Shown here: piece after piece, positions 360-55,544 of the stretch | Numbering within the stretch: the first letter of the stretch is position 1 | Layout: each line of letters starts with the position of its first letter | Source: Octopus vulgaris | Taxonomy: Eukaryota | NCBI GenBank assembly: GCA_951406725.2 | Contig: OX597817.1 | Coordinates: forward strand, 128,650,001 to 128,714,000 | DNA: 64,000 nt | Direction of reading: 5' to 3' | Made by a program: the position numbers and the translations under genes | Notes under the pieces: model-generated | Databases searched by the model: none | What the model saw: only the letters and a program-made list of their open reading frames with translations | What the model was told of the DNA's origin: nothing

Positions 360-505
360 TTATTCTGTACGACTTTCGTTTCGACCCGTCACACTACTGT
401 ACCTTATGTGTGGGACTCTGTTCAGCTCGTTGCGTTGCATCCATTTTGCAGTCTGGGTCTCATTATGTACTTCCATAGAGAATGTCAACTGCCATGTTGT
501 CATAT
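360..505 (-). repeat. Left arm of a diverged inverted repeat (partner 1220-1386), pLTR-like
   Basis: The reverse complement aligns to 1220-1386 (e.g. gttgcatccattttgcagtct / agactgcaaaatggatgcaac); the minus strand has GAAAC-GAAA-GTC. Confidence 0.75.
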
Positions 506-514
506 GCCTTAACT

Positions 515-1202
515 AGTAAAGGACCTGGGTATCTTGGTGGATTCCTCCTTTTCGCCTTCGGGCCTGTGCGTCCATGCTGCCAACAAAGCACGCGGAGTTC
601 TGTTCTTGATTCAACGGTCATTCGGAATGCTCACAGCAGCCATATTCCTACCGCTCTATGTCACGCTGGTGAGACCCATATTAGAGTACGGGATTCAAGC
701 CTCTTCTCCTTATCTCCTCAAAGACATACAGCATCTCGAAAGAGTCCAGAAGCTGGCTACCCGCATGGTTCTTGGTCTCAAGAATTTGTCTTATGAAGAA
801 AGGCTGAAGACGCTCGACATTTATTCTGTAGAAAAACGACGACGCCGTGGTGATCTCATTCTTGCTCACAACATCATAAGCGGAAAGTGTAACCTCTCGA
901 AGGAGCTGTTCTTCACTCCTGCTCCAGAGCGTCGGCTGCGGAGTCATTCCGAAAAGCTCTATCTGCGACGATTTCATCTCAATCGAAGGAGAGGGGCTTT
1001 CTCCGTCCGAGTTGCGGATCCGTGGAATAAGCTGCCGGACGAGATGGTGAAGATGCCGACGACCGCTCAGTTCAAAGTCTCCCTTGACCACAAGTGGCCT
1101 GAACTCTTTACATGAGCACTACCCTGTACATAACTCCATGTCCCCCTACATGGCCTTGCTTTTTGCTTTTTGAGCCAAAAGATTAACTAACTAACTAACT
1201 AA
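515..1202 (+). mobile_element. 5'-truncated CR1/L2-like LINE: RT C-terminus (open frame 516-1115), 3'UTR and (TAAC)n tail
   Basis: KDLGILVDSS...ANKARGVL..IQRSF...LYVTLVRPILEY...LERVQKLATRMV.GLKNLSYEERLK.L...RRRRGDLI...FSVRV..PWNKLP is typical of CR1/L2-group ORF2 C-termini; microsatellite tail; 7-bp direct repeat CTTAACT at 508-514 and 1203-1209. Confidence 0.9.
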
Positions 1203-1219
1203 CTTAACTTGACGAGAAT

Positions 1220-1386
1220 ATAACAACATGGCAGCCAAGACTCAAGATCTTTAGTGAGACACGACTTTATCTATAGACGTACATGGTGAGACCTAGACTG
1301 CAAAATGGATGCAACACAAGATGTCGAACAGAGTCACACACATAAGGGACAATAGCAGGACGGATCGAAACGAGTGCGGTGAATAA
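1220..1386 (+). repeat. Right arm of inverted repeat (partner 360-505)
   Basis: Reverse-complement match to 360-505 with a ~20-nt indel. Confidence 0.75.
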
Positions 1387-1389
1387 ATT

Positions 1390-1668
1390 GTCGTCTAAAT
1401 TATGCAAAAAAGAAAATAACATTGACATATCATTTTAACAAAATTACATTAAAATATCTTGAAATACTAAAGAGAAAATTTATTTAATAAAATCGCCATT
1501 GACTTCGGAATCTGCAACTCTTCTGGATGATCTCCTTGTTTTAGTTGATGAATGCTGCTATAATCCTTGCCTTCAATTCATCTTTGGTTTTACATGGAGT
1601 TTTGTTGGTCACTTGTTCAACTGCACCCCACGCATAATAATCAAGGGGTTTTAGTCTGGTAAGTTAAA
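1390..1668 (-). mobile_element. Tc1/mariner (DD37D/maT-like) transposase C-terminal remnant
   Basis: The minus strand reads PD*NPLDYYAWGAVEQVTNKTPCKTKDELKARIIAAF, similar to the C-terminus of the 13933-15210 element. Confidence 0.75.
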
Positions 1669-2261
1669 TGATCAGATCCGTCCTGCTATTGTAGGCTTCA
1701 TTGTTGTATATCTGTTTGAGTTTCGATCGAGTGTTATACGGATGAGCGTAGAGTCGACGAGTGTGTCTCACACGAGGTCCGTCCAAGTTTCTAGCGGGGG
1801 TTTAAGTTTGTCTGTCTATAGTCGAATGGTTTATTTGTCTAGTACTATAGTGTGTCTCTTCGGAACTGAGTTTAGCGATGTGTTTTTTAAGCCTAGTGTT
1901 TGCCATGAAATTAATTTGCAGGGAGAAGCCGCTAGCAGATACTACCTGGTTACAGTATGTAGCATTGTTATTGAAGATTTCCCCAATGGCCGAGAGATTC
2001 GATATCCAGATAGATATGCATTTGCTTACACTATCGAAGGTAGATTTACGGTGATTAGAGTCTATCTTAATGTGTGTGTGTGTATATATATATATATATA
2101 TATATATATATACTTTCGTGAGTTAAATTGAGCAAACACTATATGAGAGAGATTTTCTTTAAGTATTGGAAATAGTTTTAAAAAAGTTTTTTTAGCTGCT
2201 ATTTCTAATGAGTTCAGTATGCGGCAAAGTAATTTATTTTACTAAGCCCTTTTATATAATG

Positions 2262-52256: not shown

Positions 52257-52279
52257 TATATATATATATATATATATAT

Positions 52280-52500
52280 AAGCATATGCATACACAGGTA
52301 CAGGACGTCACCAACAGTAAATGACATGAAATAAGAAAATAAATTAGTTCAATACGCAAACAACCTGAGAAACAAATGAGAAACAGGACAAATAACATAA
52401 AGAACAACCTTTCATCAATTGTCGGCTGTGTATCTACTCTTCATTTCAAGCATTGAACGAGAATATGAGTCTTCGAAGACAGTTGCTTCTATAAGTACTA
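52280..52500 (-). mobile_element. Diverged relative of the 15290 repeat family
   Basis: gtacaggac.tcac end and cttcgaa...ttgatgaaagg boxes on the minus strand. Confidence 0.5.
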
Positions 52501-53414
52501 AAATATAATTTGGGATTTATGGAGAGTCAAAGTTGGGAACAAAAACAAACATGGAGGGTCGTTATGACCATCTTTCTTTTCTTTCTGGACTGTCCTAAGG
52601 ACTGGACGTATCCTATGTCTCTCTTCTATCTTTTCTCTTCTCAAAGAAAATGTATCTCCAGGGTTCGCTAATTTACCGTCTTCATAGAGCATATAATATA
52701 ATCTATTAATACATATATACCCAGCATAGCAGAGAAGGCGATCTTAGTTTTAGTTCATGCAAGTGAAAGAACGTGAATAATACCTGGACTATTGTAATTT
52801 CAATTCTGAATAGAAACCTTTATGTCCTAGTATATCATTGTGCCATATATTCTCATTTAGAGCCATGTGGTTTCTCGAATAGAATAAAGGAACGAAATAT
52901 TCAGAATAGTAAATTGAAAACATAAAATTGGTCGGTTTCTAGGTTTCTGGGCTATTCATTACCTGCAAGCAATCTATTATCTTTACTTATTGCATATTCT
53001 CAGATGACAACAAATACACGCAGCTTTCAGAAGAATTATTTTTATGACACACCCTCTCTCTTCTCTTTTCCTCTCTCTCTCTCTCTCACTGTGTCCACCC
53101 ACATACACACACTCTCTCTCTTTCCCTCTCTCTCTTCCCCTCCCTAACACATGCGAGCTCGTATATATACAATATTTATAAATTTAGGCAACTTCATCGT
53201 TGTTAAGAAACGGTCGAGTTGGTAAAGTAATTACTAATAGATAAAAATGTTGCTTCACATCTAGATGATAGGTGTTTGATGGCGTTGCATTTTGTGCAAG
53301 TACAGACTAACACGATGTCAAATTTATCAAAGTACCCAAAACACAAAGAACTATATATATATATATATATATATATATATATATATATATATATATATAT
53401 ATATATATATATAT

Positions 53415-53858
53415 ATTATTGAAGTAGATAAATGAATTATCTTAATACGGATTATTCAAATGATAACCGATACCTGGGTAGCAAAAATCACAACAGAAAA
53501 AGCACGGTTGAGGTTACGACCATGGGGCCTAAAATCCGTGCCTTAGTGCGGAAATTTGAAGTTTTATATATTTAGTGTAGGAAGAAATGGAGCTGAACGA
53601 AGATTTAACAAAATTCCTTTTTATTATTTTCTACATATGTTTCAAAGGCTGCAAAGAACCCTAATTCGGATTGAATAAGGAGTCTATTTTGCAGCCTTCT
53701 CTTCAGGAAAATCCAGGAACTTAATTCTCCAACAAAATGCACAGCAAGCTTTTCGACATGTAAAATATAAATAACGCTGAAGCAAAGTAACACCAAATAT
53801 ATAGTGCGTGTGTTGTTATTGGCTAAACTGGCAAAATGACCATTCCTAAATACAACTA
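53415..53858 (-). mobile_element. ~440-bp solo pLTR-like element inserted in (TA)n, carrying an intact HHR
   Basis: Long (TA)n on both sides; HHR at 53626-53712. Confidence 0.75.
53626..53712 (-). ncRNA. Type I hammerhead ribozyme, intact core
   Basis: ATTTTC-CTGAAGA-G-AAGGCTGCAAA-(32 nt)-TTTGCAGCCTT-T-GAAA-C-ATAT-G-TA-GAAAAT: 6-bp stem I, 11-bp plus G.U stem II, palindromic stem III, GUA triplet. Confidence 0.85.
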
Positions 53859-54894
53859 TATATATATATATATATATATATATATATATATATATATATA
53901 TATATATATATAGAGAGAGAGAGAGAGAGAGAGAGAGAGGTGGTTTACTGAAATTATGAATCCAATCGTAGGCGTTATGGTTCATTCGAGAATACGGCAA
54001 AATATACTTGTTACTTTTAATCATATTCACCCAGCACCTTATTGTATCGGTCTCTTTTCATCGATTCGCTAAGGAAACCGCTGACAAAAATGGATGCTAG
54101 TTGATGCATCGTCCTACACTAGTATACAAATATACACCCACATAAATAAACACAGATATCTATATGCATGGAAGTATGTATATCTATTTGCATGTATACG
54201 TGTGTGTATGTCTCTGTATCTGCGTGTATGCATATACGGGTGCGTACACGCATATATGTATATGTGTGTGTGTGAGTGTATGTGTGAATGTATGCGTACA
54301 CAGGCACAAACGTACATGCGTATATACGTATATACATAGATGCATGTGTGAGTATGTATATATATATATATATATATATATATATCTTTATTGATACATT
54401 GAAAGAGAGAGAGAGAGAGAGTGAGAGAGAAAGAAAGAAAGAAAGAAAGAAAGAGAAAGGGGGAGAATGGTTGAAAAAGATGTACATATAGTGTGTCAAG
54501 TGTGTCGAGACTTATCAAGGATATTAGCTCTTATTGATTTCCGTTTATGATAACGCGTGCTTATGCACGCGCACTCGCACTCTCTGATAAACATACAAAA
54601 AACAAAAATACAATCACTCGTGCATATATACATATACATATACATATATACATACATACATACATACATACACACATATATATATATATATATATATATA
54701 TATATATATATATATATATATATATATATATATATATATATATATATATGTAACAAGAAGCTGGAGAAAAAAAAACTGTTTTAATTACAAATTACGACAT
54801 TTGTTTCTGTGCCGTCCCACCAGCTTTACGTTGCTGAGTTTTCATTCTCATACTATAACATAAAGTTATTTTATAAATAATTTCCTCATTTTTT

Positions 54895-55200
54895 TTGTTT
54901 TTACTTGTTCCGATCATTAGAATGCTGCAAAGCTGGGGCGCCTCCATGAATTGTTTTTGTCGAATGAATCGACCGCATTCGTTATTGTTTTTTAAAGTCT
55001 AGTACTTATTCTATCGGTATCTGTTGTCGAACCGCTAAGTTACGGGGACGTAGACTCACGCACACGTATATATATATATTTACGACGGGCTTATTCCTCT
55101 TACCGTCTACCACGTCCACTGACAAGGCTTTGGTCAGACCGAAGTTATAGAAGACACTTGCCCAAGGTCCCACGCAATAATGTTGTTGAGAGGTAAGCAG
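54895..55200 (-). mobile_element. SINE family A, lying between inverted-repeat arms
   Basis: ctagtacttattctatcgg...gaaccgctaagttacggggacgta...caaggctttggtc..gaagacacttgcccaagg. Confidence 0.8.
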
Positions 55201-55544
55201 TACTCCATCGCGTAGATTACTCTAAAGGCACAGAAACAAATATCGTAATTTGCAATTAAAGCTTGTTCCCCATTACCATCTTCTTATTGTGTAAATTCTT
55301 ATATAAATTTTATACACTAACAGATTTCCGTATGTTTATCCAGCGCATGAAATGATTTTGCTGTATGAAGTTATACTGTAGCCATAACAGTAACAACTGT
55401 CATGTAATTAAACATACAAAACTTTGTTTTGCCTGTATTGTGTTTGAACGTATTTCTCAATACTTTTTCTAAACACTTATTATTATTGAATTATTGAGTG
55501 GGAGAGAGCGGTGATCACCCGACATGGTGATCCCATATCAAAAT

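Follow-up and report, generated by a model that had tools for sequence, protein, structure and literature searches.

The window analysed here, 64,000 nt of Octopus vulgaris DNA (C4:128650001-128714000, contig OX597817.1) from a microsatellite-rich genome of 2.8 Gb, contains four pairs of inverted arms with hammerhead ribozyme sequence, and these pairs are head-to-head copies of four unrelated dispersed families. The pairs are best read as head-to-head insertions of the hammerhead-bearing pseudo-long terminal repeats (pLTRs) belonging to Penelope-like elements (PLEs), a reading that is established for pair 2, linked to PLE sequence for pair 1 and suggested for pairs 3 and 4. The explanation that best accounts for the data as a whole, to which a probability of about 0.72 is assigned, is that each pair of PLE pLTRs probably arose afresh where it landed, through priming from two target ends on one sense RNA. 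The original prediction had offered two options for these structures, a class of non-autonomous, mobile foldback retroelements or a stereotyped by-product of PLE integration, and it is the second that the common layout and the PLE identity of family B, the family of pair 2, support; taken alone, the by-product reading of the pairs is held with high confidence. The value of the finding lies in the mechanism and not in the class of element: family B, a young family with more than 570 copies, has an intron that serves to tag the template, which provides a cheap genomic test of one RNA versus two and of sense versus antisense.

Head-to-head pairs in the window

Self-BLAST of the window after simple-repeat masking, which covers 14,653 of the 64,000 bases, recovered all four of the predicted inverted pairs: pair 1 (376-486/1263-1373, 82% identity, E 1e-24), pair 2 (35193-35432/35441-35680, a near-perfect palindrome of 240 nt whose arms differ by one base and the tail), pair 3 (within 41283-41385, 71% identity, E 4.5e-5) and pair 4 (54780-54813/55227-55260, 94% identity, E 3e-7). 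The common geometry that had been proposed holds in 4/4 pairs, with the ribozyme-sense strand being the minus strand in the left arm and the plus strand in the right arm, and in each of them one arm carries a 3' tail and the other does not. The arms themselves are longer than first drawn, the left arm of pair 1 extending to about 175, the right arms of pairs 2 and 3 to 35760 and 41487, respectively, and the left and right arms of pair 4 spanning 54748-54886 and reaching about 55388, respectively. As predicted, the four sequences are mutually unrelated, and each belongs to a separate dispersed family, with 375 candidates in the same genome for family A (pair 1), 1562 for family B (pair 2 as query), 130 for family C (pair 4) and 24 for family D (pair 3), or 206 when a 5' query is used for the latter. 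The association with microsatellites is real to the extent that the outer ends enter (TA)n in most family copies, although the proximity to simple repeats has little meaning in a window so rich in them.

Pair 2 is the only one that keeps whole hammerhead cores. Its left arm (35193..35443, minus strand) is a spliced family B pLTR whose body end lies in (TA)n and which includes a full hammerhead core at 35341-35403, and its right arm (35441..35760, plus strand) is likewise spliced, with the exon-exon joint at 35456/35457, a full core at 35470-35532 and an 80-nt tail at 35681-35760; the two arms overlap by 3 nt (35441-35443). In pair 1, the left arm (175..508, minus strand) is a tailed family A pLTR copy with the box GAAAC-GAAA-GUC at 371-382 and a core mutated from CUGAUGA to AUAAUGA (460-466), and the right arm (1205..1386, plus strand) has no tail, a shortened 3' end and a mutated core, the C3-to-A change being common to both arms. 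Pair 3 consists of two family D copies, both cut within the stem II insert, of which the left (41279..41336, minus strand) lacks CUGANGA and a tail and the right (41333..41487, plus strand) is tailed. In pair 4, the left arm (54748..54886, minus strand) is a family C copy cut within the stem II insert, with no CUGANGA, no tail and a (TA)n end, facing a short tailed family C copy on the right (55227..55388, plus strand, with an approximate end). The incompleteness of the cores in the older pairs, noted earlier, is thus confirmed, pair 1 being mutated and pairs 3 and 4 cut before CUGANGA.

Pairs 1 and 4 owe their long spacers to later insertions, of a long interspersed nuclear element (LINE) and a short interspersed nuclear element (SINE), respectively, and once they are removed the arms join directly, like those of pairs 2 and 3. 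The insertion at the pair 1 junction (517..1203, plus strand) is the 3' end of a LINE-like open reading frame (ORF), with an open frame of 200 aa and a tail of (TAAC)n, and is bordered by the two copies of an 8-nt duplication, which differ at 1 position (509-516, 1204-1211); we take this insertion to be of CR1 type, a label for which Pfam, with 0 matches for this piece, gave no support. The insertion at the pair 4 junction (54890..55226, unstranded, right boundary approximate) is a decayed SINE-like copy of the commonest dispersed repeat of the window, matching the copies at 62793-63174 and 35810-36213. A fifth pair had tentatively been proposed at 21150..22008 (unstranded), and it is indeed a real inverted repeat, rich in CA/GT, but a motif scan found in it neither a GAAAC-N4-GTH box nor a CUGANGA core, and a genome search returned 3 candidates, two of which were its own arms, leaving one other match; it was therefore left out of the class.

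Family B as the pLTR of a Hydra-clade PLE

A 23-nt core of family B has 573 exact matches in the genome, and in the longer copies the first exon, of 29 nt, is separated from the hammerhead exon by an 885-nt GT..AG intron, which ends 13 nt upstream of CUGANGA and is precisely absent from both arms in the window. Spliced and unspliced genomic copies thus coexist, with GT..AG intron ends. In a third splice form, found at three loci (L116, L131, L135), splicing joins the same acceptor to a donor that lies about 220 nt past the stop of the ORF and takes out the promoter region; this upstream-donor form of the RNA retrotransposes as well. Contigs from four runs guessed to be RNA cover the intron and exon 2 with no exon joint and are uninformative.

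Walking upstream from the family B pLTR reached an ORF, and the order pLTR, ORF pieces, pLTR was found in L247, L251 and L252, with L251 showing a tailed pLTR, ORF pieces, 3' untranslated region (UTR), intron, hammerhead exon and tail; the long copies examined were broken or partial in 10/10 cases. The translations contain SDKT, a divergent RT4, YRDD, CTCRDKTKC, YIGS, CYLC and CRH, and the RWK position reads RIKWK, with K for R. The marks of the Hydra clade are a DKT motif, a CxCX5C linker, and CxxC and CxH around conserved E and N residues (PMC8557442), and by these motifs family B appears to be the pLTR of an autonomous-type Hydra-clade PLE, contrary to the non-autonomous nature envisaged in the original prediction. 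A homolog search with the family B reverse transcriptase (RT) gave one unnamed match among longer proteins. At most of the listed loci, the 3' ends of family B run into (TA)n.

The family B ORF at L229, L230 and L248 has a long asparagine-rich stretch between RT and endonuclease, and a stretch of this kind is reported in rotifer Penelope families (PMC3846280). A distinct and abundant PLE, whose 781-aa frames combining RT and GIY-YIG are intact and which has an ORF upstream and pLTRs of 300-500 nt (L206, L207, L216, L217), was considered as the parent of family B and discarded, as 0/5 full-length loci match the family B exon; B-like pieces adjoin 2/30 of its loci (L183, L199), with other sequence in between, and a hammerhead pattern scan of the pLTRs at L206, L207, L216 and L217 found nothing. 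At L199:2405-2604, a tailed B-like arm stands head-to-head with a truncated copy of the 781-aa PLE across a short palindromic filler, which could be a mixed-family insertion or chance nesting.

Pairs, tails and splice state in a sample of the genome

The rules that govern the pairs were derived from a sample of every family B locus, 79 in total, that has the exact core and lies on C1, on C2 or within the initial 155 Mb of C3; inclusion requires that one arm extend to the core and sets no condition on architecture. The sample comprises 47 solo copies (40 ending at the body end, 6 tailed and 1 broken) and 32 pairs, and the latter are divergent without exception (32/32), as are 29/29 pairs of families A, C and D, which bears out the orientation bias anticipated for these structures. 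In 27/27 of the family B pairs with both 3' ends intact, one arm is tailed and the other stops at the body end, and the 5 remaining pairs have a broken arm; an earlier tally by regular expression, replaced by the one based on BLAST maps, had given 24/26 tail-plus-body pairs, the two exceptions being distant or older copies. Families A, C and D were sampled from their top matches, and are therefore biased, with 14/19 callable pairs showing the tail-plus-body combination. The same-strand arrangement is rare, a second hammerhead core on the same strand within 2.6 kb having been found at 1/79 family B loci (L096).

The splice state, readable on both arms of 11 family B pairs, was spliced in 6, unspliced in 5 and mixed in 0; with 33 spliced and 24 unspliced arms among those that could be scored, 0/11 mixed pairs gives P ~6e-4. 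Both states occur in both family B subfamilies, and pairs mixing the two subfamilies, which had been suspected, were not found among those where both arms can be classed. Partner arms are also closer to each other than to other copies, with a mean of 13% of other arms being closer (26 comparisons). Most family B arm pairs overlap in content by more than 100 nt, and in 9/27 pairs it is the arm with the tail that stops sooner on its 5' side, so that each arm holds sequence that its partner lacks; at locus L123 the arms abut at 257/258 with no overlap at all.

The 32 family B junctions comprise 17 with an overlap of 1-12 nt, 3 blunt and 12 with 1-221 nt in between, and the overlap at the 20/32 filler-free junctions has a mean of 3.25 nt, compared with 0.93 nt in simulation, a difference for which no P is claimed, as BLAST overlaps allow mismatches. 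The junctions differ by locus, and the string at the pair 2 junction recurs at one other locus among those examined (L014/L017), with the tail on the opposite arm. At the 5' side, 25/26 spliced copies extending to the apparent start include no more than a few bases of the promoter, and in 10/26 a G stands where the template has T (P 0.013), weakly suggesting a cap.

Proposed two-ended priming on one RNA

A PLE protein from Anolis, PAc, cuts and extends both target strands in vitro, starting on the RNA at two positions, which delimit the tail (PMC11167929), and it is the joining of this two-strand, two-start result with the family B counts that makes two-ended priming the best fit. The pLTR would be transcribed and sometimes spliced, as the spliced and unspliced genomic copies attest, and the PLE enzyme would cut both strands of a (TA)n target, in keeping with the flanks and with PMC11167929. 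One 3'-OH would then start where the body ends and the second at the end of the tail, about 80 nt farther downstream, these being the two fixed ends that are observed in the copies; both complementary DNAs (cDNAs) would run towards the RNA 5' end and stop at the variable points seen in the arms, with the second cDNA displacing the first wherever they overlap. Joining of the cDNA ends through the short overlaps or fillers found at the junctions would leave the arms back to back, with their boxes pointing outward, and a single productive priming end would leave a solo copy.

From these patterns we infer a single RNA template for both arms. Priming of both cut ends on one sense RNA, or twin priming, is a reasonably probable route, and its more specific form, in which an enzyme dimer would copy one RNA twice from two fixed starts onto both (TA)n target strands while the trailing polymerase displaces the leading cDNA, is favoured by a narrower margin of belief. 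If true, double copying of one RNA would account at once for the one-sided tail and the head-to-head layout of PLEs and would rule out antisense self-priming. Should pairs make up about 40% of insertions, as they do in the sample, such families would leave many long hairpin-forming sites in the genome, with a possible small-RNA effect.

Several observations weigh against this reading. Pfam gave no match for four family B ORF pieces, so the Hydra call is one made by motifs, and in 1.5-kb flanks searched with queries from two other PLE families no PLE ORF was found at 29 family C loci, and a match was found at 1/45 family D loci (L083) in the wrong orientation. Among the callable pairs of families A, C and D, 5/19 were scored tail-tail or body-body; pair 4 of the window was one of these five, and a more sensitive alignment found its tail, whereas decay may or may not be the cause of the remaining four. 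The splice-state test comprises 11 pairs, gene conversion between arms could inflate the similarity of partners, and the extra 5' G falls to 6/22 (P 0.2) without four copies explained by overlap. Strand displacement by the PLE RT is presumed, and two like RNAs held on one dimer would give an identical pattern.

This last possibility leads to the strongest of the alternatives, in which two separate RNAs sit on a protein dimer, one per cut end, and match each other through a shared source locus or RNA pool. No strand displacement would be needed here, though most arms overlap by more than 100 nt, a dimer is predicted for PAc (PMC11167929), and the arms share their subfamily in every classable pair. 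Nevertheless, both forms of the RNA retrotranspose (33 and 24 arms) and yet meet in none of the 11 scorable pairs, and the alternative must explain why the tail start is used on one RNA and the body start on the other in every intact pair, as well as the exact abutment at L123; it is considered unlikely.

Less probable still is self-priming or fold-back, a published hypothesis in which an antisense RNA (PMC3846280) or the first cDNA copies itself and the endonuclease resolves the hairpin. One molecule would account for matching splice states and variants, and junction overlaps are present, but the precisely spliced pairs (the 6 sampled and that of the window) need a sense template, which disfavours the antisense form, and the spliced copies that reach the start carry at most a few promoter bases in all cases but one. 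A simple snap-back is excluded by the 9 reciprocal pairs, in which neither arm can be a simple copy of the other, and fillers of up to 221 nt at some junctions do not fit it either.

The mobile foldback class of the original prediction, moving as whole hairpin units, would be favoured by the recurrence of the pair 2 junction string, but at that locus the tail has changed arms, most loci (47/79) are solo, the 32 junctions differ, the long spacers are later insertions and family B has ORF-bearing parents; furthermore, the hammerheads are on opposite strands, so that one RNA would have a single sense ribozyme locked in a 241-bp hairpin, and the idea is rejected as very improbable. That fold-back reads created the near-perfect palindromes during assembly, as the 240-nt palindrome of pair 2 might suggest, is equally improbable, given that the pair 2 arms differ by one base and the tail and that 32 young pairs obey the same rules as old pairs whose arms are 71-94% identical and which carry later insertions.

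For the remaining families, a Hydra-type endonuclease sequence lies at 2/25 family A loci, 1.1 kb upstream on the same strand at L031 and inverted relative to the arm at L036, and this is the link that ties pair 1 to PLEs. With no such ORF link for families C and D, their PLE status follows from the layout and is put forward as probable.

The hammerhead ribozymes

The outward box GAAAC-N4-GTH, by which the arms had been recognized, is exact in 5/8 of them (382-, 35352-, 35521+, 41312- and 54807-) and not in the other three, and by itself it is weak evidence, close to chance, since the window has 10 such boxes compared with a shuffle mean of 4.55 (range 1-9, 40 shuffles). Complete CUGANGA...GAAA...UH cores with stems are a different matter, with 3 in the window versus 0.1 expected, namely one in each pair 2 arm and a solitary one at 53632-53706(-) that the original prediction leaves out, so that only 2/8 window arms have a whole core and the arms of pairs 3 and 4 begin after CUGANGA.

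The alignments of all four families, in contrast to the single window arms, contain a type I hammerhead, made up of stem I, CUGANGA, a long insert in stem II, GAAAC-N4-GUH and the partner of stem I, so that the CUGANGA and GAAA cores expected of the older families are present there; both boxes are exact in 5/25 copies of family A, 3/20 of C and 4/20 of D. For family A, covariation yielded 0 compensated pairs in an alignment window that cut the stems and missed stem II. For family B, the constrained hammerhead fold has -7.8 kcal/mol compared with -13.9 kcal/mol for the free fold. An Rfam scan of the window had no hammerhead among the matches listed (150 of 239), all of them simple-repeat and below the gathering score.

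In family B, splicing sets exon 1 beside the hammerhead (35430-35560) and creates a 7-bp distal stem I pairing that is absent when unspliced; the predicted fold is -7.8 kcal/mol spliced versus -6.2 kcal/mol unspliced, which echoes a remark on D. virilis in PMC4209133. The solo complete type I hammerhead (53632..53706, minus strand) represents a fifth family with a long stem II and has no inverted partner in the masked self-comparison; with a well-paired stem II insert of 56 nt and a constrained fold within 1.3 kcal/mol of the free one (<=1.3), it is the best-folded ribozyme of the window. Two related copies at 15351-15385(+) and ~36660-36725(-) have the order GAAAC-N4-GUC, stem, CUGAUGA, which would correspond to a type II-like permutation of the hammerhead, and two 90%-identical copies at 2-63 and 20360-20421, in which a short GAAU/GAGU box lies downstream of a CUGANGA core, may belong to another small hammerhead family.

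Relation to known systems

The layout is already published for PLEs (PMC8557442, PMC3846280, PMC4209133), and the families described here are further members of a known architecture. According to these papers, head-to-head is the most frequent arrangement (PMC3846280), hammerheads occur in opposite-strand pairs 100-700 bp apart, an intron ending at helix I is also reported (PMC4209133), and how PLEs come by inverted repeats and a tail on one side is treated as an unsettled question (PMC8557442, PMC3846280). The closest relatives are the Hydra-clade elements such as Hydra-1_Obim (PMC8557442), which share with family B a single ORF with RT and C-terminal GIY-YIG, the DKT, CxCX5C, CxxC and CxH motifs, a pLTR hammerhead, (TA)n targets, an inverted 5'-truncated copy and a one-sided tail. 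Family B, set apart by eye from the Hydra-1_Obim family, differs in the length of its unit, about 5 kb including a long 3' UTR that holds an intron compared with less than 3 kb, in KWK instead of RWK, in a tail of about 80 nt instead of 30-40, and in a stem II insert of 44 nt compared with 22 nt in Hydra-1_oBim (PMC8557442).

Pen2a_Av and other endonuclease-containing (EN+) PLEs (PMC3846280) resemble the present pairs in their head-to-head arms, the tail on one inverted pLTR, the junction overlap, intron retention and an initiator (Inr)-like start in the pLTR; unlike those cases, most pairs here consist of pLTRs only, and the antisense self-priming put forward there fits poorly with the spliced pairs and with arms that each hold sequence missing from the partner. 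The ribozymes themselves agree with the PLE hammerheads of PMC4209133 in the type I core, the short stem III with a palindromic loop in families B and D, the extra base before stem II in family B, and an intron that ends at stem I, as in Drosophila virilis Penelope. The palindromic loop III would fit the dimer-type hammerheads of that work, from which the folded copies here differ in stem II inserts of 44-116 nt compared with a helix II of 6-8 bp, and cleavage here is predicted only.

The PAc protein of the Anolis Poseidon element (PMC11167929) shares the two RT starts bounding the tail, the cutting and extension of both target strands and the AT-rich targets, but belongs to a different clade, and family B pLTR plus tail end about 55 nt before the ORF whereas those of PAc end inside it; the portion of PMC11167929 considered contains no derivation of the inverted layout from two-ended priming. 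A literature search, with most subscription journals outside its coverage, likewise found no paper deriving the PLE head-to-head layout from twin priming. As the target is (TA)n, target duplications are unreadable here. Non-LTR retrozymes (bioRxiv 10.64898/2026.07.22.740005) are also short non-coding hammerhead repeats related to PLE pLTRs, but need at least two tandem same-strand hammerheads, whereas the pairs here are inverted and opposite-stranded. Given the opposite-strand arms and the single family B locus with a second core on the same strand, identity with non-LTR retrozymes was rejected. In the octopus pairs, neither of the two start sites varies and one arm usually repeats the sequence of the other, which sets them apart from the twin priming of LINE-1. 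There, two target ends prime on one RNA and produce a 5' inversion with microhomology, the arms do not overlap and the second priming site is variable.

Other elements of the window

Three further elements, at 25905-27221, 38313-39960 and 39983-40656, have terminal inverted repeats of 32-37 nt and no hammerhead box and are likely non-autonomous DNA transposons, so that not every inverted pair in this region derives from a PLE. A perfect (ATGT)n array of 5.1 kb occupies 46419-51527, with 100% matches over 1277 copies, which may be real or an effect of assembly. Finally, a coding-like stretch at ~56200-58400(-) was read by eye as what is presumably the C-terminal end of another LINE-type element.

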